IMG/VR virus record: IMGVR_UViG_3300032295_003051 | Span: 1 to 43,468 of that record | DNA from: a virus | Taxonomy: Duplodnaviria > Caudoviricetes | Direction: 5' to 3' (one strand) | Length of the DNA stretch: 43,468 nucleotides | Part shown: piece after piece, positions 21,912-37,022 of the stretch | How positions within the stretch are numbered: position 1 is the stretch's first letter | How the letters are laid out: every line of letters starts with the position of its first letter | The notes under the pieces: generated by a model | Seen by the model: only the letters and a program-made list of their open reading frames with translations | What the model was told of the DNA's origin: nothing | Database searches by the model: none | Position numbers and translations under genes: made by a program

Positions 21912-22523
21912 TTATCTATTAGCTAGTGTAGAACGTAAAAACCAACGCCACTTCTTAAGCATACCATCTCTTCCTGCAAGGAAATCAGAAATACCGTGCT
22001 CATGATTAATCTCTGCTAATTCATAAGATCTCTCATTAGAAGCTATTAACTTCTCTAGATCGTCGTGTAACTCTTTAAACATAACCATCGCTGGTGGTAT
22101 AATTTTTGAAGCTTCTGTAATAGCAGTTAGTTCTTGGAATCTTCCAAATGATCCAGGAGCATAACCCCCTAACTTACGAATATTTTCGGCAATAGGATCT
22201 ATAGTTCCTTGTATATCGTCGTATATTTTTCCTAGTAACTCGTGATACTGAAAAAAGTCCGGTCCTTCTATATTCCAATGGAAATATGAGGCTTTTACAT
22301 ATACAGAAAAAGAATCTGCTAAATATGTTTTTAAAGATGCTATTAGAGTATCTACAGAAGGATCTTCTTGAGACATAGAAGACATTTGCTCTTCTTCGTC
22401 GTCATCATTTTCTTCAGGCTCTTCCATTTCTTGTTCAGAACCTGTTATCTCTTCCATAATATCTTCTACAGAATCATCTTCCATAACTTGCTTTTTTATA
22501 TTTTTAAGAGTTTTTGTGATCAT
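21912..22523 (-). CDS. dps: Dps-family mini-ferritin with acidic N-terminal extension
   Basis: FHWNIEGPDFFQYH, IDPIAENIRKLG ferroxidase signature; RBS AAGGAG. Confidence 0.93.
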   Translation of the reverse strand: MITKTLKNIKKQVMEDDSVEDIMEEITGSEQEMEEPEENDDDEEEQMSSMSQEDPSVDTLIASLKTYLADSFSVYVKASYFHWNIEGPDFFQYHELLGKIYDDIQGTIDPIAENIRKLGGYAPGSFGRFQELTAITEASKIIPPAMVMFKELHDDLEKLIASNERSYELAEINHEHGISDFLAGRDGMLKKWRWFLRSTLANR

Positions 22524-22585: not shown

Positions 22586-23572
22586 TTAAGTATATCTTCC
22601 TTGCCCAGCTTCAAATATAGTTTTTTCACCTGTAAATAGGTTTTCCTCTATTTTTTCTCTGCTACTGATTACTTTTCCACATTGACTTTTGCAAATAGGA
22701 AAACTTCTATCATAACCTTGAAGATAGCTTCTTAATTTTTCCCAATATTGAGAAGATATTATTTCTTCTATAGGAATACTATTAGCATTAAATATGTTCT
22801 CAAAGTTAGTAGGATAATAAAATCTAGTCACTTCCTTATCGTAGTAGTGAGCACCTGTCCAACAACATCTAAAAACTAATCCATCAGGAGATACATACCA
22901 TTTTTCCCAATCATCCCAACTACAATGTATTTTCTTGGGTAGTTTTGTTAAGTCTGCTGTTTTTTTGGTATGAACATAATCACCAGTAGTAGGAGCAGCA
23001 AAGAATCTGCCAGTCTTAATTAGATTAAAAGAAGTAAAACCTTCTTTTATTGCAAGCTCTTTAGCCTCTGCTATTTGATGCTGATTATAATCAAAAACAA
23101 TAAACTTCCAATGAACTTGGGATCTCTTAGTCTCTATAACAGATTTAGCATTTTCAAAAACTTTTTCAAAAGTAGTATTTATTCTATAAGTAGAATGAGT
23201 ATCTGATAAACCATCTAGAGCAAAATTTATAATATCTTTAGAATCAAGAATATTGCCTACATCATTCCAATAATCTTTATTATGAATTCCGCCATTTGTA
23301 TGAATATTTAATCTTACATTGTGTTGTTTTACATAAGCTATTATCTCTCTAAATTGCTTATTCATTATGGAATCACCAAAGTTTCCGTTAAAGACTAACC
23401 ACTCTAGATTACTTAAAAACTCAGGATAAAATACTTTTTGAAAAGACTCAAGTGTAAAAGTATATTTAGCATCATTTAAATCTATTCTTAAAGGCTTTTG
23501 TCTGTGACAAGCAGGACATTTAGCATTACATCTAAATGTTAATTCAGTTGTTATTTGTTTGTATTTTTTCAT
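22586..23572 (-). CDS. Radical SAM protein with C-terminal SPASM/twitch-like cysteines
   Basis: CNAKCPAC (CX3CX2C), GNFGD, HTNG, FALDG; C..YVSPDGLVFRCC..CKSQC. Confidence 0.92.
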   Translation of the reverse strand: MKKYKQITTELTFRCNAKCPACHRQKPLRIDLNDAKYTFTLESFQKVFYPEFLSNLEWLVFNGNFGDSIMNKQFREIIAYVKQHNVRLNIHTNGGIHNKDYWNDVGNILDSKDIINFALDGLSDTHSTYRINTTFEKVFENAKSVIETKRSQVHWKFIVFDYNQHQIAEAKELAIKEGFTSFNLIKTGRFFAAPTTGDYVHTKKTADLTKLPKKIHCSWDDWEKWYVSPDGLVFRCCWTGAHYYDKEVTRFYYPTNFENIFNANSIPIEEIISSQYWEKLRSYLQGYDRSFPICKSQCGKVISSREKIEENLFTGEKTIFEAGQGRYT

Positions 23573-27765: not shown

Positions 27766-30700
27766 TTAAACTCCTGTTACTGAAAAGTCTACTGTTGTAA
27801 CACTAGAACCAACATTATGAGATGAGACTCCGTTAGAAAAATATACAGAAATGTTTGCTCCTGATAATCCTCTATCTACAATCACAACTTGCGGCCTTGC
27901 TAATTGATTTGAACTCGAAGACACTAAAGCTCCAGTTATTTTTGGTGTCTGTACAAAGGCCATTCTAGCATAATCTACATAAGTAGTAACGGATGCAGTA
28001 TTCATAGTTACTATTGACGTAAATGTTTTTTCATTTAAGCTTACTTTATATCTGAACTTATCTAGTATAAATTCAGCTTGTTGTGGGTCATAATTATTAA
28101 CTATATATCTAAACTGAAAATATCTAAAAGTTCTTGCTCCACTAACGAAGTTAGTAAACCCGTCAGAATTAGATATAGAAGTAAACACTGAGTTGTTTAC
28201 TCTACCATTAGCATAATAAGGATTAGAATCTGTAAATCTAAATTCAGTATTAGTAGTAACTAGTCCTGTAGTTCCGTAGAAAGTAGAACTACCACTTAAA
28301 TCTAACCACTGCCTTAAGTTTACCAGTTTATAGGAGGTGCCTGCAACTGTTAAATTAGAAAATCCATTACTTCCTATAGATTTTCCATTAGCATACCAAG
28401 ACTCTCCTAAAACTAAAGTGTTTGCGTTACTTACACCTGCTATTAAACTCATAACATTTGCGTTAGCAACATCTCCATTAAAGTTTCCTCTAGCTATAAT
28501 AGCATATACGTTTGCAGGGTGAGTTGCTTGAATTCCGCTAGTTAGTGTTTTATTCTCTGAGTCATAAGTAACAGTAGCTGCTGAAGCATTAGCAAAACCT
28601 AAAATATTACCGATACCTAACGACCCAGAAAAGTCAACATCTCTTAAGCTTCCAGAAGGGGCTGACTCAGTTACTTGATTTCCTCCTATCTGGTCGCTAT
28701 AATCTAACCAAGTAGATTTTAGAGCTTGATCTCCTACAATATCTACAGATAAAGATGCTGATATTACGTTACCTATATCTCTTATCTCTGTTTGATAAAT
28801 AGCGTTTGCCAAAGCTCTTAGATCAGAAGGAGAACTCCCGATTACACTCCAGCCTACTGAAGTTCCATTAGCATTATCTGTTCTACTTGCATTAAAAGAA
28901 TTACTTGGAAACCCATAGTTATTAGAATTATAGTAAGATAGGTAAGCATTAGAACCATAGTTCTCATTAATGACTCCTGGTACATATGCTCCACTAGGAT
29001 CGTCTTCTGACCATGCTTTGAACACATTAGTAAAGCTTTGAGGTGCCGAAGTAAACTCAGAGACCACAATAGTTTCACTAAAATTACCAGAAGTATCTTT
29101 AGTTCTTACTAAATAAGTATAGGTACCGTACTGATCAATATCAATAACTACTCTGTTAGTTCTAGCGTCTACTCTGGCTACTTCATCAGATCTAGGCCAT
29201 AAATCTAATAAGTTTGAGTCAGAAATATCGGAAAGAACTCCTTCAAGTCTTCTAATATTAACTTCTAGCAAGTCAATATCTATATTATCACCTGTTGCTG
29301 GATTGATTATGTACTGCCAAATAAATACTAAGCTATCTCCTGTTTGTCCTGCTGCAAAATTAACTACATTATTAGGCTTAGCTGACTTACCTATTAAATC
29401 AATAGTTTTTGTAGTAGTTGATCCCCTAATAGACCTATTTAAAGGAGTTACTCTAACTGTGATAGAGTTTTTAGTACCATTTATGCCTTTTTCTATATTA
29501 TCTATTCTAAATCTTATTTTACCGTCTGAATCTACACCATTAGCAGAAGCTTTTACAGTAATAAATGAACTATTTAAAGAAGTATTTAGAGATGTTATCT
29601 TATAAGATATTTCATAATCAGTGACATCTTGACCTGTTATATGATCAAAAACTATAATCACTCTCACAGCAATACCAAGAGTAGAATCTTTATATAACTC
29701 TTCTTCTACGTTTAAATTATTAACAGCTCTAATTGGTATATTATAAACAGTTGTGTTTTTTGTTACGAAAGCGCTTCTTCTTCCATATTTATTAACGGTT
29801 CTAGCTTTTACTGAATGTACTCCTACCTCCGCTCTTCTTATAATTCTAGAAGTTGAGTCACCGAAACTCATTGGCTCATATACAGAAGCCGGCGCATTAA
29901 TTAAATATACAGCATTATTACCTATATTTAATAAACCTGGGTATACATCTGATGGATAATTAAAAGTAAATGTTTTATTAGTAGAGTTTACGTTTCCTAT
30001 AACTCCTATTGGATTAGGTGTAATATTAGTAGCATATGAAACAGCTATATTTGATCTTATAGGCTCAGACAGAGTTACTCTATAAATATTATTGGCTGTC
30101 ATATAAGCATTATAAGTTGGAGATGCGATATCATAAGTTGTAGCTGTAATTCCATAAGTATTACCAGAATTCCAACTAATATTATCTCCTGCTTCTATTA
30201 AAGGAACAGTATATGTATTAGCGGTAACTCTAATATCTAAATTAGAAGTACTAGTAGGTAAGGTTGTTAAAGTAATAGATACTTGAGAATTAGCTAAGCC
30301 ATCTAACCCTCTTTCTAATACATAGTTAGTATCGTCAACCCCATTAATATAAACACTAACAAAATCAGAATGTCTTATTGACATGCTTAAAGGCTGTTTA
30401 AATCTATTTCCTTGAATGTTGCTCGTAGTAGCAACATTAGTTCTAGTAACTTCAACATAGTTTCCAGTAATATATAGAGTATTATTAGAGAAATATCTAT
30501 GATCTAGTACTTGTGGGATAGATATATAGAAAGGAGGATCTGGGATTATACCTTCCAAAGAAAAAGCGCCAGAGGTATCATTATCAATTTTAATTGTAGC
30601 TGTATTAGCATTAAAACCTACAACATTAGCGCTATAGTTAGTTAGTGTAGTATCAGATCCAACAAATCCTAAATAACCTAAAGCATCTCCTGTTCCAGAG

Positions 30701-33700
30701 AGAGTCTTTTGATTTATAGGAAGGGTAAGTTTATTCACACCCTTTAATTCATTAAAGTTATAAGTATTAAGTACGTCTAAAACGTGAGTATTATTTTCAA
30801 AATTCTGATCAATAAGACCTTTTAAACCTTGAACCGTAAAAGTTATGTTTCCGTTTGGTTTATACACAGGATCAACGTCAGTTATAGAGAATCCTGTAAC
30901 TAATAGTCTTGATACGCCTAACTCTGTTGTAAAACCATTCTTACCTTGAATAATTGCAGAAACTCCGTTAGATATAGAAGAAATATCGTCTACCTTACAT
31001 AAGAGAATATCTCTACTTGCAGAGTGATTGGTGTTAGATAACAAGAGATAAGATGATAAGGGTTTAGCATGATAAAACTCAGTTTTAATCTCATTAGAAT
31101 AACCAGTTAAATCAGTATATGCACTGATTACTATATCTGTATAAAGTGAACCATCAAAATCTCTTTTGGCAATTGGACTTAAAGTAAAATCAGGAGCTGG
31201 AGGAGCTCTAAGAGGGCTGAAAAAGTCAGCAAACTTTAAAGGGTTATAATTAATGATGGTATCAGAATCAATATATACATTATTTACATACTCTTTAGCT
31301 TCTATAAATACAGTCTCGTCTCTATCTCTTTTTATATTAATAACTCTAAATAGTTTATCAGTTAGAGAGGAATAGATATTTGTTGGATCTAGAATTTCTC
31401 CTAAACTCCAAACATCTTGTCTACTGGGAACATGATTATCTCCCCAAGTACCAGTAAACGATTGAAATGATTTAGTTGGATGATCATATTTTTTAATAGC
31501 TTGAACACCGATTACTTCAGCACCACTATTCACATTAGAAGTATTACTTAAAGAATATGTAGTATTACTAATTATATAGGTGTCTATTAAACCTGACTTT
31601 CCACTTGCTATTCTTAAAGCAAGAGGCTTTGTATTAGCAGTGAAAACTGAAGCAATAATAGGAGGATTACCAATATGCTCTAGGTAAATCATGGCCCCAG
31701 AAGCTGCTGAAGTATTAGATACAATTCCTCCATAGCCCCAAGCTACAGAAGTGGCTCTTTGAGATATAGATATAACAGAGCCTGGAGATATTTCAGAGGC
31801 TTCAATACCCGTTTTAAATCCAACTTTTCTTCTAGAATACTTTGTATCCGCGATCATATATTGAGCTAAACGTAGAGCCTGACTTTTCCTTGACACGCCT
31901 ACTAAGTCTATCTTTGCTACATTTTCTATATAATTTCTTTCAGTTAAGGCTTTTTGATCATCTACACGTAAAACTTCTCTTCTATAATGATTAGTCATAT
32001 CATTATATGTTACATCTACTCCAGTTAATAAAGCTTCCTCTCCTATGCCGGATATATTAAATGTACCAGCAAGTATATTAGTCTCATTAAATAAAGCAAC
32101 AGGCATATTGTCAGGCTTATCTTGGTATAAGCTTATTTTGCCTCCTGTATAAAACAACATTCCCCTGAAAGTTAAGGTCATAATATGAATAATATCCATA
32201 ACCTGTTTTTGATCAGATACTACAGTATCTAAAATAAATCTACGCTCTTTAATATCTACATCTGGGTCTAGACCTACTAACACGTCTGCAACCGATGTTT
32301 TAGTGGTTCTAGGCTTATATCTATAAGTTCCATCAGCTTGAGCGTCAACTCCGTAAAATCTACCATTTGTAACATCACAAGCATCATTATATATAGCTAC
32401 ATCATAAAAAGAGTATTTGTCAATATTATCTTCGGGTATACCTAAACCATATGTTTTATTAGTTAACATATCATAGATAATCCATGCTGGGTTCTGTGTC
32501 CAAGAATATACAAATTGACCATCCCATAATCCTTGATAAATTACAGGGTTTGCATTGTATAATATAGTGCTACCAGTTCTTTGTTGGCGATAACCGTATG
32601 TAGTTCTATCAGATTCTGATACTTCAATTTGTCTCCAATCAATATCACCGTTTTCTAATATAGGCTGATTATAGTTTGAAGGTACTTTTACTATCAATCC
32701 TTTGACCATATTGGTCATAGCAGGTAAACCGCCTTTGTGCTCAGCAAAAGCTTTTAGGGCGTATCCTATAGTAGCTGTTCTAGTATAAGCAATAGGCTCC
32801 TCTATTATTTCAGTCCATCCTTGAAAAGTTACACTGTTTTGTCTTTTAGCGGTGTCGGCATCATCGCTAGTTTTTTCAACAGTAAACTTATATCCATCGT
32901 CTGATTGTTTATCGGGCGGTATAGACATAAATAAATCAAAAGAGTAAGCTGTATTTGTTTTTCCTTTTATCACTCTTTCTTGGGTTGTAATTATATTAAC
33001 CCCAGATCTATCGTATAACGTAGCTTTAACAGATAACGAGTCTCCAACAATATCACCTTTATCTGTCTGTTTCTGTAACCCTTGTAGAATAAAATAAAGC
33101 TTAATAGCACTTAGAGCTGTAGGAGAAGTACTCTGCTTATCAACAGCGGCTCTAGGAACACTATCAAGATTGCCTTTTTTAAGATCTACAGATCCTTGTA
33201 ATCTTTGAGGTACAAAAGTATAATCTCCAAAAAGAGGTAGTCTTTGTTGAGAGATAGTTCCTGTGTTATTTATAGTAAAAAACTTTTCACTATTCACTGA
33301 TCCATCAGTTAATAGGTCATCTATGTTTCCTTCATTAAACTCAATATCTTGAGGGCCGTTAGGGTTAATTCTATATACAGGACCTTCTCCTAACCCTAAA
33401 GTTATAAATAAGACATCAGTAGAGAATAAAGAATTAGGATCTTCTTTCCCTCCTCCTCCTCCTTTACCTCCTCCGCCTCCATTATGGACTTTAATACCAT
33501 TAGCAATATAAGAGTGTAAATGTGAGACTTTGAAGTTATAAACTTCATCTTCTTTTAGAAAGTCTATTGAAATAATTCTCGAAAAAGAATTATTTTCAGT
33601 AATAAGCTTATCACCAATTTTAAAATCTCTTAATTCTTGATAAGTTCCATCATCTTTTAAAACCCAATGATTAGGTGTAATATCTAAATAACCTTCTTCA

Positions 33701-33927
33701 TGAGTTACTCTATAAATTAAGTCGTTTGTATGGTAAAAAGTCTCAGTTACTTCAGAGATAATTAATTGACCAATCTCATTAAAAGCCCATACTCTATCAC
33801 CTACTTCAATATCTGATATTGAAATAGTTCCTGACTCAGTTAATATCTGTGTATCACTAGAGAAACAACCGCCGCCACCACCTTCTATAAGAGGGACTGC
33901 AGCATCATCTATGTAAATAACTGTCAT
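27766..33927 (-). CDS. Central tail fibre / tip attachment protein (lambda J-like) with N-terminal Hint domain
   Basis: GGKGGG..EDPNSLFS, LGEGPV, VKVPSNY, WDGQF..WTQNPAWIIYD, FN3-like segments; Hint domain at aa 21-149. Confidence 0.93.
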   Translation of the reverse strand: MTVIYIDDAAVPLIEGGGGGCFSSDTQILTESGTISISDIEVGDRVWAFNEIGQLIISEVTETFYHTNDLIYRVTHEEGYLDITPNHWVLKDDGTYQELRDFKIGDKLITENNSFSRIISIDFLKEDEVYNFKVSHLHSYIANGIKVHNGGGGGKGGGGGKEDPNSLFSTDVLFITLGLGEGPVYRINPNGPQDIEFNEGNIDDLLTDGSVNSEKFFTINNTGTISQQRLPLFGDYTFVPQRLQGSVDLKKGNLDSVPRAAVDKQSTSPTALSAIKLYFILQGLQKQTDKGDIVGDSLSVKATLYDRSGVNIITTQERVIKGKTNTAYSFDLFMSIPPDKQSDDGYKFTVEKTSDDADTAKRQNSVTFQGWTEIIEEPIAYTRTATIGYALKAFAEHKGGLPAMTNMVKGLIVKVPSNYNQPILENGDIDWRQIEVSESDRTTYGYRQQRTGSTILYNANPVIYQGLWDGQFVYSWTQNPAWIIYDMLTNKTYGLGIPEDNIDKYSFYDVAIYNDACDVTNGRFYGVDAQADGTYRYKPRTTKTSVADVLVGLDPDVDIKERRFILDTVVSDQKQVMDIIHIMTLTFRGMLFYTGGKISLYQDKPDNMPVALFNETNILAGTFNISGIGEEALLTGVDVTYNDMTNHYRREVLRVDDQKALTERNYIENVAKIDLVGVSRKSQALRLAQYMIADTKYSRRKVGFKTGIEASEISPGSVISISQRATSVAWGYGGIVSNTSAASGAMIYLEHIGNPPIIASVFTANTKPLALRIASGKSGLIDTYIISNTTYSLSNTSNVNSGAEVIGVQAIKKYDHPTKSFQSFTGTWGDNHVPSRQDVWSLGEILDPTNIYSSLTDKLFRVINIKRDRDETVFIEAKEYVNNVYIDSDTIINYNPLKFADFFSPLRAPPAPDFTLSPIAKRDFDGSLYTDIVISAYTDLTGYSNEIKTEFYHAKPLSSYLLLSNTNHSASRDILLCKVDDISSISNGVSAIIQGKNGFTTELGVSRLLVTGFSITDVDPVYKPNGNITFTVQGLKGLIDQNFENNTHVLDVLNTYNFNELKGVNKLTLPINQKTLSGTGDALGYLGFVGSDTTLTNYSANVVGFNANTATIKIDNDTSGAFSLEGIIPDPPFYISIPQVLDHRYFSNNTLYITGNYVEVTRTNVATTSNIQGNRFKQPLSMSIRHSDFVSVYINGVDDTNYVLERGLDGLANSQVSITLTTLPTSTSNLDIRVTANTYTVPLIEAGDNISWNSGNTYGITATTYDIASPTYNAYMTANNIYRVTLSEPIRSNIAVSYATNITPNPIGVIGNVNSTNKTFTFNYPSDVYPGLLNIGNNAVYLINAPASVYEPMSFGDSTSRIIRRAEVGVHSVKARTVNKYGRRSAFVTKNTTVYNIPIRAVNNLNVEEELYKDSTLGIAVRVIIVFDHITGQDVTDYEISYKITSLNTSLNSSFITVKASANGVDSDGKIRFRIDNIEKGINGTKNSITVRVTPLNRSIRGSTTTKTIDLIGKSAKPNNVVNFAAGQTGDSLVFIWQYIINPATGDNIDIDLLEVNIRRLEGVLSDISDSNLLDLWPRSDEVARVDARTNRVVIDIDQYGTYTYLVRTKDTSGNFSETIVVSEFTSAPQSFTNVFKAWSEDDPSGAYVPGVINENYGSNAYLSYYNSNNYGFPSNSFNASRTDNANGTSVGWSVIGSSPSDLRALANAIYQTEIRDIGNVISASLSVDIVGDQALKSTWLDYSDQIGGNQVTESAPSGSLRDVDFSGSLGIGNILGFANASAATVTYDSENKTLTSGIQATHPANVYAIIARGNFNGDVANANVMSLIAGVSNANTLVLGESWYANGKSIGSNGFSNLTVAGTSYKLVNLRQWLDLSGSSTFYGTTGLVTTNTEFRFTDSNPYYANGRVNNSVFTSISNSDGFTNFVSGARTFRYFQFRYIVNNYDPQQAEFILDKFRYKVSLNEKTFTSIVTMNTASVTTYVDYARMAFVQTPKITGALVSSSSNQLARPQVVIVDRGLSGANISVYFSNGVSSHNVGSSVTTVDFSVTGV
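33481..33867 (-). other. Hint (intein-like, BIL-type) domain, 129 aa, no endonuclease
   Basis: Block A CFSSDTQI, block B ITPNHWV, block F VYNFKV, block G KVHN; residue +1 is Gly. Confidence 0.92.
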
Positions 33928-33945
33928 TTAAAAAATACCCCATTT

Positions 33946-34674
33946 TTAAGTTGAAGAATTACCGCCTTCAATTTTCTCAATCTCTGATCTGTTTTTATAT
34001 AATAAATCTACTACGTATATAGTTTCAGACTCTCCATGTGTTATAGTTTCAACATGGCCACTTAACATTTGACCCGCACATCTAGGCATACCATATATAA
34101 GAGGTACAGGAGTACTAGGATCTGTGCTATTTTCTAAAGCGTCAAACATATCATTATTTCTACGTTGCGCAGAATCTGATGGACCCTTCATATCAGGAGG
34201 TTTCATTAGCATTTGCATCAATCCAGATAAAACAAGTCCTAGACCCATTTTAAGCAACCCACCCGCACTAAATAAACCACCAAGAGCAGTAGTGGAACCT
34301 ACGAAACCAGCGCCAGTACCGCCTAAAGCTAGAGGAGCACCACCTAAGAATAAGGCAGCTCCTATTAAAAGTATACCTAGAATTATGCCTAGACCTCTTC
34401 CAGATCCTGCTATTATAGGAACAATAGTAAGTTCTCTATGTGTTACTCTATTAATAAAATAGTCTTCTCTTGTTAAAATCTTTCCATCTGTTGTAACTAA
34501 AGATAGATTCTCTCTAAGAGTACCAGCTGCGATTTGTCTAATATACTTTCTAATTTTAGGAAATAAAACACTTAGAGCATCTTTAATGTCTGATAGCTTT
34601 GCTACATCAAAAGTATGAGATTTTACTCCTGTCATAGGTTGAAGGACCGGATGAAAATGTAAAGTAAGTAACAT
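33946..34674 (-). CDS. Tail assembly protein I-like (ubiquitin-like N-domain)
   Basis: Beta-grasp-like N-domain ending VPIIAGSG, Gly-rich hydrophobic segment, PVPLIYG. Confidence 0.88.
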   Translation of the reverse strand: MLLTLHFHPVLQPMTGVKSHTFDVAKLSDIKDALSVLFPKIRKYIRQIAAGTLRENLSLVTTDGKILTREDYFINRVTHRELTIVPIIAGSGRGLGIILGILLIGAALFLGGAPLALGGTGAGFVGSTTALGGLFSAGGLLKMGLGLVLSGLMQMLMKPPDMKGPSDSAQRRNNDMFDALENSTDPSTPVPLIYGMPRCAGQMLSGHVETITHGESETIYVVDLLYKNRSEIEKIEGGNSST

Positions 34675-35043
34675 TTATACTAAACTCTCTTCTGTAAAAT
34701 CTTTGAATCTTAAATAGTTTAAATCATCTAACCAATATTGATAGAAAGTATTATTCATATTACCAACTATAAATTTATATTGAGAAAATATAGCGGAATC
34801 TTTATCCTTTTCACTAGGTAGTTCTTCATGGGAAGGAGTATGACTATGAAAAATACCCCAGCATTCTTCTCCGTGTTTAAGAAGAGCTACTGGGTCTAAT
34901 ATAAAAGTATCTTTTGGAGAAGGGCTTATATTTTTACAAGGAATATATTTAAAATCTTTTGTAATAATTCCACAACATTCAAATTCTGGATTCTCCTCCA
35001 TATGTGTTTTAAAAGACTTAATTAAGTCTTCATACCTACCCAT
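34675..35043 (-). CDS. JAB/MPN+ metallopeptidase (lambda K N-domain, stand-alone)
   Basis: ECCG, CKNIS, HSH..PSEKD JAMM motif. Confidence 0.9.
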   Translation of the reverse strand: MGRYEDLIKSFKTHMEENPEFECCGIITKDFKYIPCKNISPSPKDTFILDPVALLKHGEECWGIFHSHTPSHEELPSEKDKDSAIFSQYKFIVGNMNNTFYQYWLDDLNYLRFKDFTEESLV

Positions 35044-35456
35044 TTATATACCCCCATCGTATATTGTTTATAATATGAACCGTATACGGCTATATGTGAT
35101 TTGTGGTTCTGTATTGTATGAATTATTCTATTATTACCTATATATAAAGCACAGTGATTAGTTATGCTTGACGTACCCATTACCATAGTTATAACACTAT
35201 AAAGCTCTGGATTAGAAATTTTTTCCCAACCATATTCTGAATTATTACTGACATTATCAATTAATCTTTCATGAGTTCTGCCGTACCAGTTATCATCAAT
35301 AATATTACAAAAATTTCTTGTTGTATAAGGTAAGTCTATATTTAATTCATTTTTATAAATATATTTTATAAGGTTAAAACAATCAATACCAGTCTCAGGT
35401 GTAAGACCTAAATGCTTATATGGTATTCCTACGTATTTTTCCCAGTTTATCTCCAT
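35022..35456 (-). CDS. NlpC/P60 protein (lambda K C-domain-like), copy 1
   Basis: YVGIPY..G..GIDCFNL, NHCALYIG..IIH. Confidence 0.88.
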   Translation of the reverse strand: MEINWEKYVGIPYKHLGLTPETGIDCFNLIKYIYKNELNIDLPYTTRNFCNIIDDNWYGRTHERLIDNVSNNSEYGWEKISNPELYSVITMVMGTSSITNHCALYIGNNRIIHTIQNHKSHIAVYGSYYKQYTMGVYKWVGMKT

Positions 35457-35860
35457 ATACTAGCTATCATGTTTCTCCAATTGTCGTTTAAAACATCAAT
35501 TTTGGAAAAACGCCCCTCTTCTAAATGTATAAATTTGTTATATCCTACATACATACCGAAATGAATTGGTAATAATCTTTTTGACTTAAATAGTATTACA
35601 TCATATTCTTGTAAATCTGTCAAGTCAACTTTTTTAGCAACTAAAGAAGCCCCATATTCTATATCTTGTATAGAAAATCTCTTCATCCAAGCTTTCCCAT
35701 CTTGTGGTTTACCGTCAGGCATGTCTAAGTATACCCATAACTTATCAAAAGCGTTGGAGTTAAGTTCATTTTTATATATCTCATTTATTAAAGTAATACA
35801 ATTATTTTCTAAATAATCATGTTTTTTATTTAGATATTTAAGATATTTTGATTGATTCAT
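35447..35860 (-). CDS. NlpC/P60 protein, copy 2 (divergent)
   Basis: NNCITLI..IYKNEL, YDVILF, HFGMYVG..FIH. Confidence 0.82.
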   Translation of the reverse strand: MNQSKYLKYLNKKHDYLENNCITLINEIYKNELNSNAFDKLWVYLDMPDGKPQDGKAWMKRFSIQDIEYGASLVAKKVDLTDLQEYDVILFKSKRLLPIHFGMYVGYNKFIHLEEGRFSKIDVLNDNWRNMIASIWR

Positions 35861-37022
35861 ACCAATCTGCTAATTCAGGAACTGTATAGGTAAAATTTTC
35901 GTTCCTATTTCTATCTAAAGTAGACGTAACCTTTTTAAATTTAATTTCTAACTCTTCTCTATTATTAACTTCACCTTTTAAAAATCTCAACCAATCTAAT
36001 ATATTATTAATTTGATCAGTAGATAGATCTTCTCTATATGTATTTAAAAAATTTCTATAATGAATTAATATTTTATGCTTTTCTTCTTTTGGAAGAATTT
36101 GACAAGAGAGATAGTCAGGATTAACTAATGTTGTACCAAATACAGTAATTTTTCTAGAATTAGCCCACAATATTAAATCTGTCATAGAGTATATACTCAT
36201 TGTATATATCACAGAACTAATTGTTCTAATGTATGGTCTAACCTTATCAACATTAGTCTCAAACTGTTCCCATTCTAATTCTTTTCTTATATATTCAGCT
36301 ACCTGACCATATCCATCACAACTTACCCATAGATTTACAATTTTAAACTTCTCCCATAGAGAAGGTAAATCATAGTTTTTATATTTTAATATAGAAAGAT
36401 TAGTGTTGTAATTGATAGTTATATCTGTTTTGTTTTTAGATATTAAAAACTCTAATAACTTATAATGACCATCTAATACAAATGGTTCACCACCTGCAAA
36501 ATATATAGTATCAATTGTAGGATATATTTCTTCTAAAGCTTTCCATAACTCTTCATTATTAGTCCAGTTATCTAATAATCTTGCATATTTGTTTTTAAAT
36601 AGATTCTTACTTTCTTTAATCCAAGATGTGCTTGCCATAGGTCCGCAAGTTCTACATCTAAAATTACAAATATTACCGAATCTTATATCTATAAATACTG
36701 GTGGGGGTGGTGTTAAAGAATTTTGTAGATGGGAATAAGAAGCCCATTTATTATTAGCATTATGTCTAGGGTTTTGCTCAACCCCTAAACTTTCTTTATC
36801 ATAACAAGCTTTTTTACATTGTTCAGGTATTTTATCTTCTAAAAATTGTTTTCTTAGGTTTATATAAGCATCACCATTCCAAACTTCTAGTAATGGTTGT
36901 ACACTAGAGCCTAGAATATAAGGATCTTTATCAGCTTGATCAGAAAAACAGCAAGCTCTATATCTACCTTTTAAATCACCGTGTATGTGAACCCAAGGTA
37001 AAATGCAACCTTTAATAGCCAT
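35838..37022 (-). CDS. Radical SAM protein with N-terminal twitch/SPASM-like domain
   Basis: N-terminal CILPW..YRACC..CKKAC; CNFRCRTC (CX3CX2C); FAGGEP; YNTN; VSCDG. Confidence 0.92.
   Translation of the reverse strand: MAIKGCILPWVHIHGDLKGRYRACCFSDQADKDPYILGSSVQPLLEVWNGDAYINLRKQFLEDKIPEQCKKACYDKESLGVEQNPRHNANNKWASYSHLQNSLTPPPPVFIDIRFGNICNFRCRTCGPMASTSWIKESKNLFKNKYARLLDNWTNNEELWKALEEIYPTIDTIYFAGGEPFVLDGHYKLLEFLISKNKTDITINYNTNLSILKYKNYDLPSLWEKFKIVNLWVSCDGYGQVAEYIRKELEWEQFETNVDKVRPYIRTISSVIYTMSIYSMTDLILWANSRKITVFGTTLVNPDYLSCQILPKEEKHKILIHYRNFLNTYREDLSTDQINNILDWLRFLKGEVNNREELEIKFKKVTSTLDRNRNENFTYTVPELADWYESIKIS

Follow-up and report, generated by a model that had tools for sequence, protein, structure and literature searches.

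Siphophage tails of the lambda/T1 type are encoded with a gpK-gpI-gpJ module, in which gpK combines a JAB peptidase with an NlpC/P60 domain and gpI carries a ubiquitin-like (Ubl) domain. Cleavage of the gpI Ubl by JAB was predicted (PMC1779556), and a 2025 meeting summary reports that gpK cuts this domain after tip assembly, acting as an assembly checkpoint on gpI (PMC12908700); the lambda tail structures show only residues 134/135-222/223 of gpI, without gpK (PMC10721106, PMC12617516). Type-A bacterial intein-like (BIL) domains, a class of short Hint domains, give mainly cleavage products, with slight splicing by aminolysis (PMC4031507, PMC7664689, PMC7765530, PMC5874633), and have been reported from hypervariable regions of bacterial proteins that are not conserved (PMC7765530). 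Here we analyze a Hint domain at the N-terminus of gpJ, the central tail fiber or tip protein, of a virus of the Caudoviricetes (Duplodnaviria), IMG/VR record IMGVR_UViG_3300032295_003051, all 43,468 nucleotides of which are referred to below as the window. An earlier note on this DNA, made from the sequence alone, had proposed that the Hint, the short leader in front of it and a nearby JAB protease form a domesticated system of tail-tip maturation. The reading that we somewhat favor is a different one: the Hint would be an old passenger that cleaves itself from J at Asn149, behind a leader that is found throughout the family and would be trimmed by JAB.

A type-A BIL-like domain at a fixed site in gpJ

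The Hint comprises 129 amino acids (aa), leaving no space for an endonuclease, and in isolation passes the Pfam cut-offs for Intein_splicing, PT-HINT and Hint (E-values of 3e-9 to 4e-8). Its catalytic residues, in gpJ numbering, are C21, T84-P-N-H87 (the TxxH motif) and H148-N149, with G150 at position +1. The closest solved structures by sequence profile are the type-A BIL 2LWY (E 3e-19) and, next, Tetrahymena BIL2 (E 9e-17). An AlphaFold model built from 12 sequences is confident over the Hint alone, with predicted local distance difference test (pLDDT) values of 72-95; the leader and flanks were modeled at pLDDT <50, so that AlphaFold is uninformative on them. Foldseek matches of the Hint model are the DnaB and gp41-1 mini-inteins, BIL2 and the BIL 2LWY. 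There is no second Hint within the 43-kb assembly.

The related Hints, 194 in number, are all short (123-143 aa). The +1 residue is Gly in 99 of them, Lys in 59, Ala in 28 and Thr in 8, and in none is it Cys or Ser; a canonical intein is ruled out by this residue, which is Gly here. Gly is found at position -1 in 191 of the 194 junctions. In domain numbering, Cys1, Thr64, N66, His67 and Asn129 are invariant in all 45 distinct Hints, and the penultimate His is replaced by Ser in 10 of these. No Hint copies of endonuclease size were seen, though the searches used favor short Hints.

By its sequence features, the gpJ Hint looks like a type-A BIL, not like a canonical intein. With the Clostridium thermocellum BIL (2LWY; Pfam PT-HINT), it shares a fold of about 130 aa (Foldseek E 1e-9), Cys1, the block-B His, the VYN block F, the terminal His-Asn, and the lack of both an endonuclease and a +1 nucleophile. 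Unlike the described BILs, it occupies a single homologous site in a conserved phage structural protein, although the linker itself varies; empty alleles of this site exist, and the Hint is flanked on both sides by Gly or Lys-Gly, behind a leader that resembles a protease site. Because the site is fixed and lies in the conserved phage gpJ, we file the domain as a variant of the type-A BILs. The BIL2 domain of Tetrahymena BUBL1 (6Y75, 6TMM) is similar in that the Hint stands straight after a ubiquitin-type tail ending in Gly-Gly, but BIL2 is flanked by folded Ubl domains and forms isopeptides (PMC8616854), whereas the gpJ Hint is preceded by a peptide of only 20 aa, modeled, as noted, at pLDDT <50. 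Class 1 phage mini-inteins (gp41-1, DnaB) have the same fold (Foldseek E 5e-11 to 4e-10), a fixed site and empty alleles, which make up the majority in gpJ (see below), but the gpJ Hint lacks Cys, Ser or Thr at +1, Thr being present in the 8 relatives mentioned, and is located in a Gly-rich linker, not in an enzyme motif.

A family-wide leader that copies the tail of the gpI Ubl domain

A matrix derived from 92 gpI tails of other loci was applied to about 12,900 positions of the window's open reading frames (ORFs). The gpI tail ranked first with a score of 21.3 and the J leader second with 12.5, with the next site at 0.9; this ranking, with its wide gap to the third site, rules out a chance likeness of the leader to the gpI tail. 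For comparison across the J family of the window (hereafter family A), a tree set was assembled from those of the 328 J matches that extend for at least 330 aa downstream; these 235 matches, which come in part from searches biased toward the Hint, yielded 95 clusters at 95% identity (32 Hint-bearing and 63 empty). The PxIxG[GAS] leader is present in 32 of the 32 Hint-bearing clusters and in 60 of the 63 Hint-less ones, and an origin of the leader as a Hint-specific invention is ruled out, given that it is common across the family without any Hint. Of seven named phages picked by hand, six carry a leader of the IxG[SA] type ahead of a K/G-rich run (T1, Bcep176, Kintu, ChibiTotoro, phiV208 and Silvergun; in Kintu, it sits 5' of the annotated J start), and the seventh, lambda, has a J that begins with MGKG without a leader. 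Between the leader motif and Cys1, the Gly run is variable in length, with 2-8 residues. One Hint-less clade of J (the L146, L175, L176 group) retains the leader and lacks the Gly run after it; the J proteins of L230 and L296 have no leader, and the JAB of L230 is still intact.

The N-terminal 95 aa of gpI are modeled as a beta-grasp fold at pLDDT 84.8. Nearly all top Foldseek rows for this model are SAMP1, MoaD or ubiquitin folds, with weak E-values (0.0045-0.02); the gpI profile places PxIxG[GAS] on the terminal AVAGG of the ThiS/MoaD-family protein 4n6e (E 0.018), and G90, the conserved Gly at the end of the beta-grasp, is invariant in 46 of 46 sequences. These signals, consistent but individually weak, point to a beta-grasp domain ending in a conserved Gly. 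In eight loci (L017, L018, L030, L037, L104, L106, L129, L136), gpI is present as twin genes that both have a PxxxG tail, and L217 encodes a 477-aa ORF that is a possible fusion of such twins.

The gene order and domains match those of the lambda/T1 module, with a JAB protein carrying an intact JAMM motif and NlpC/P60 proteins upstream of Ubl-gpI and gpJ. The window differs from that module in the split of gpK into three genes (two NlpC/P60 genes and a separate JAB) and in the optional Hint; the J leader that copies the gpI tail is present in T1 and absent in lambda. The JAB of the window retains E22, H66, H68, S77 and D80, which are invariant in 11 of 11 aligned homologs, and the JAMM motif is intact in all 83 recovered JAB genes (12 loci were too short to show JAB). 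The leader is likely to be a general propeptide of gpJ cut by gpK/JAB, and, from the identity of the motif, we infer a second JAB substrate besides gpI.

The descriptive part of the earlier note holds up well. A fresh reading of the sequence together with Pfam confirmed the coordinates, the residues, the endonuclease-free Hint and Gly at +1; the comparison with type-A BILs is borne out by the +1 residues of the relatives and by 2LWY as the best solved match, the JAMM protease near gpJ is intact as described, and the likeness between the leader and the gpI tail exceeds chance. The alignment of related J N-termini that the note had proposed places the Hint at the same site in every case, with the leader preserved in Hint-less alleles.

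Distribution and history of the Hint

With the window protein as the query, nearly all relatives retrieved carried the Hint; hence, the site was approached through a J motif on its downstream side, for which viral contigs were scanned. In this sample of about 310 stretches, and among the matches listed for it, the Hint is absent from 137 of 195 J loci, 91 of 126 distinct alleles and 62 of 84 clusters. On the J tree of family A, presence and absence of the Hint require 2 changes, against 27 when shuffled, and a single origin is not rejected (p 0.50); likely, the Hint entered this family once or twice, long ago. The nearest empty J core is 56% identical to that of the window, and does not exceed 69% identity to any Hint-bearing J. 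Within the window's subclade, all 45 leader-anchored matches carry the Hint (41 whole and 4 cut by contig ends, the contigs overlapping between two collections). By eye, the Hint tree largely parallels that of J. The median ratio of nonsynonymous to synonymous substitution rates (dN/dS) is 0.15 for the Hint (94 non-independent pairs) versus 0.14 for J (88 pairs). Judging by these patterns, the Hint is old and under purifying selection in family A, and is fixed in the lineage of the window and optional across gpJ. A cassette swap was noticed at L005:1524-2432, where the Hint is 98% identical to the L382/L224 group and the J core 95% identical to L206.

Precomputed Pfam labels show the Hint and gpJ domains together on proteins of the relatives. 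No cultured phage with the same Hint-J fusion was seen: J aa 1-500 were not covered to 80% by any record, and the best 40 of 1394 aligned from aa 140 or later. In a further search, 46 records matched, and most of them carry annotations as helicases, terminases, other enzymes or hypothetical proteins; the two that were inspected are not gpJ. A scan of GTDB yielded 19 loci, with one clear Hint-less J, on a short contig of a metagenome-assembled genome (L146), and one weak match to the J region (L163).

Protein searches (the best 120 of 137 and the best 120 of 478 matches) extended the distribution to a second, lambda-like J family, family B. Altogether, there are at least 189 Hint-bearing gpJ clusters, 79 in family A and 110 in family B, where the Hint occupies the same J site (for example, L437, L438, L447 and L452; proteins P0033-P0229). 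The upstream leader is retained in 78 of the 79 family A and 105 of the 110 family B proteins, being as short as 8-11 aa in the latter family. In 85 of the 110 family B proteins, the Hint is followed by a short spacer and a fresh leader, and most of the other 25 start with a Gly run and Lys; a second leader is found in none of the 79 family A proteins. Of 80 loci collected around one family B member, just 4 contained the Hint. On a fully supported tree of 10 rows, Hint-bearing and empty family B alleles interleave, with 91-92% protein identity in the closest pair, and Thr at +1 is confined to one 8-member clade; the Hint is evidently dispensable in family B. The earlier note would have taken relatives with a canonical intein, marked by Ser or Cys at +1 and sporadic spread, as evidence against its proposal. 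The interleaving of these alleles at high identity, together with Thr at +1, goes some way in that direction, but the absence of Cys and Ser at +1 from the 194 Hints does not. In the tree, family B is nested within family A; the approximately unbiased (AU) test rejects neither family A as one clade (p 0.37) nor A and B together as one clade (p 0.16), so we claim no direction of transfer between the families. Tandem double Hints are present in five gpJ proteins (P0007, P0008, P0141, P0142 and P0158), and in P0158 the repeat unit takes in the leader motif.

Related Hints in other proteins

Tim44-like proteins (P0025, P0031, P0036 and 20 more) carry 2-4 Hints in tandem after a predicted signal peptide, with Lys-Gly following 69 of 69 Hints. 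In bacterial alpha-2-macroglobulins, a related Hint separates the bait-region domain from the A2M domain (L147:2638-3066, L150:6001-6402 and L154:6001-6396), an arrangement that Pfam confirms for L147; this Hint is possibly a self-cleaving bait. A DUF2330 protein (L149:5989-7671) has an N-terminal Hint with Lys at +1. Close relatives of the J Hint were also found in non-J proteins, followed by Gly-rich or Phe-Gly flanks (P0064, P0067, P0076, P0080, P0083, P0085, P0086, P0104 and P0107); some of these proteins have weak tape-measure matches. Plausibly, the Tim44-like and alpha-2-macroglobulin Hints, too, occupy Gly-rich sites that are cut or terminal, which would support self-release of the Hint from gpJ.

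Proposed self-release behind a leader predicted to be trimmed, and the alternatives

From the anatomy, distribution and conservation described above, we infer each chemical step of the following scheme as well as the JAB cut. In a general layer, gpJ would be made with a short leader that ends in (P)xIxG[GAS] and copies the end of the gpI Ubl domain, and JAB would cut behind the motif, producing a K/G-GG-K-GG N-terminus similar to that of lambda J right after its Met. In an optional layer, a short Hint would have been inserted into the Gly run directly behind the leader. Cyclization of Asn149 would free the Hint and leave J with a Gly5-Lys N-terminus, equivalent to the JAB-trimmed form; minor re-ligation of the leader thioester to the free J amine would give the normal leader-J, and either outcome would be tolerated. 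The Hint would stay active since it must leave, probably before tip assembly, and a benefit to the phage would not be required. Inteins in general must excise, and purifying selection is expected of any such element.

C-terminal self-cleavage would likely suffice because the sequence after the Asn already resembles a complete J N-terminus. Two K-G motifs follow the leader in 27 of 27 K-type empty clusters (11 of the 63 empty clusters, without the anchor, were left out) and stand in 22 of 23 K-type C-flanks, whereas 22 of the 23 spliced equivalents would have three. In family B, cleavage alone would already yield a complete precursor, because of the fresh leader that mostly follows the Hint. 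Among the outcomes considered in the earlier note, release of J with a Gly/Lys-rich N-terminus best fits the flanks. Several observations pull the other way. Pure C-terminal cleavage requires neither the leader ahead of the Hint nor Cys1, Thr64 and His67, yet the leader is retained and these residues are invariant; in family B, the Hints are constrained (dN/dS 0.16-0.18 between groups), although with the second leader JAB might be able to take off an inactive Hint; and no loss is seen inside the 27-row and 5-row Hint-bearing clades of family A, despite Gly repeats on both sides of the Hint. The argument from K-G counts is weakened by the one or two origins that the Hint-bearing rows share, and Lys-Gly may travel with the Hint, as it does after every Hint of the Tim44-like arrays. 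The C-flanks are slightly longer than the empty linkers (median 19.5 versus 18; 23.5 for the spliced form), and the leader is compatible with a JAB cut at either of two positions, after G or after G-[GAS].

The retained leader and N-terminal catalytic residues, the constraint on family B Hints and the possibly Hint-borne Lys-Gly keep two alternatives alive, splicing and a JAB-gated timer. Under efficient non-canonical splicing, the leading alternative, though one we regard as unlikely, the Cys21 leader thioester would be resolved by the alpha-amine of Gly or Lys at +1 or by a Lys side chain, rebuilding leader-J for JAB to trim in the same way as in phages that lack the Hint. This would account for the retention of Cys1, TxxH and the upstream leader in family A, in which no second leader exists, and is in line with the nearly universal Gly at -1, with Lys at +1 in 58 of 79 family A proteins and in all 69 Tim44-array Hints, and with aminolysis as the proposed splicing mechanism of type-A BILs (PMC4031507). 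However, the type-A BILs tested so far mostly cleave; the spliced linker, with its three K-G motifs, is a form found in 0 of 52 empty alleles measured; efficient splicing would make the second leader of family B needless; and the clade of the window has Gly, not Lys, at +1. A bolder version, which we consider doubtful, posits a clade of amine-splicing inteins, in which a Lys side chain at +1 or the poly-Gly alpha-amine replaces Cys/Ser/Thr and re-attaches the ubiquitin-tail-like leader, the transient self-conjugate then being removed by JAB as an assembly checkpoint. A domesticated timer, with Hint excision gated by the JAB cut of the leader or by tip assembly as an ordered maturation step on which the phage depends, seems rather improbable. 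The lack of loss in the two Hint-bearing clades, the Hint in all 45 subclade matches, the broad agreement of the Hint and J trees with their similar dN/dS, and the role of gpK as a checkpoint on gpI (PMC12908700) fit such a timer, but in most relatives the same operon gives the same tip with no Hint involved, the Hint was lost or regained in family B, and purifying selection should mark any element obliged to excise. The domesticated Hint-leader system of the earlier note is not supported in its original form: the leader is family-wide and independent of the Hint, 91 of the 126 alleles have no Hint, and in family B Hint-bearing and empty alleles interleave.

The earlier note had further suggested that the Hint might activate the leader, as a ubiquitin-tail mimic, for conjugation independent of E1 and E2, and, more speculatively, a decoy role against host defenses that conjugate a Ubl. 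Tetrahymena BIL2, the second-best solved match by sequence, acts in the former way, linking a Ubl that ends in Gly-Gly to Lys through isopeptide bonds (PMC8616854), and Bil systems, the defenses against which a decoy might act, attach a Ubl to central tail fibers (PMC11601603), but we found no positive evidence for either role and deem them very unlikely: the leader of about 20 aa, shrinking to its minimal length in family B, has no beta-grasp domain; its spacing to Cys1 is variable (the Gly run of 2-8 residues); the motif exists without any Hint, which implies a simpler job; and nothing in this analysis ties these phages to Ubl defenses. An inactive Hint, retained on J as a structural or decorative module, might be suggested by the Ser that replaces the penultimate His in some Hints and by the non-nucleophilic +1 residue; it is hardly credible given that Cys1, Thr64, His67 and Asn129 are invariant, that tandem copies occur in five J proteins and that inteins without the penultimate His are known (works cited in PMC4031507). 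The chemistry of the Hint is most likely of the known type-A BIL kind.

The tail operon

The minus strand of the window carries a siphophage tail operon consisting of the genes for the tape measure protein, gpL, a radical SAM protein, two NlpC/P60 proteins, JAB, gpI and gpJ (Table 1). A radical SAM/SPASM gene between the gpL and NlpC genes was found in 14 of 25 loci checked. The window also encodes another radical SAM protein (22586-23572) and a Dps-like ferritin (21912-22523).

Table 1 Features of the gpJ region of the window.
Feature	Position	Strand	Evidence
gpJ, central tail fiber/tip protein, 2053 aa	27766-33927	-	PHROG 31 E 7e-94; Pfam FNIII-A_GpJ and Phage-tail_3; homology to lambda gpJ 8iyk
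gpJ leader, aa 1-20, with PLIEGG-GGG at its end; predicted propeptide cut by JAB; N-flank of the Hint	33868-33927	-	
Hint domain of gpJ, aa 21-149, type-A BIL-like	33481-33867	-	C21, T84/H87, VYN block F, H148-N149
C-flank Gly5-Lys-Gly5-Lys, gpJ aa 150-161; predicted mature N-terminus of J	33445-33480	-	
gpI, N-terminal Ubl domain ending VPIIAGS (aa 85-91; 34402-34422)	33946-34674	-	PHROG 32 tail assembly protein E 1.5e-27
Separate JAB/JAMM peptidase corresponding to the JAB half of gpK, with intact metal ligands	34675-35043	-	Prok-JAB E 9e-10
NlpC/P60 gene, gpK-like	35022-35456	-	Cys and His motifs present
Second NlpC/P60-like gene	35447-35860	-	Cys and His motifs present; 23% identity to first NlpC/P60 gene
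Radical SAM/SPASM gene, between gpL and NlpC genes	35838-37022	-	

Implications

Neither a Hint within gpJ nor a gpJ leader cut by JAB is described in the literature searched, which excluded subscription papers and supplements; the supplements of PMC1779556 and PMC3482391 may include fusions of this type. The present analysis brings out the majority of empty alleles, the second-leader design, the gain or loss of the Hint in the clade with Thr at +1, and the leader in T1-like phages. The gpJ clusters, at least 189 of them, with a small, endonuclease-free Hint at a single site and Gly, Lys, Ala or Thr at +1, represent a natural series on the persistence of Hints without canonical splicing. The same series bears on whether Lys or Gly amines can replace the +1 nucleophile, which, if true, would be useful for cysteine-free protein ligation. 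For the phages themselves, the leader predicts that gpJ would be a second substrate of gpK/JAB in T1-like and many lambdoid tails, extending the reported gpK-gpI checkpoint.

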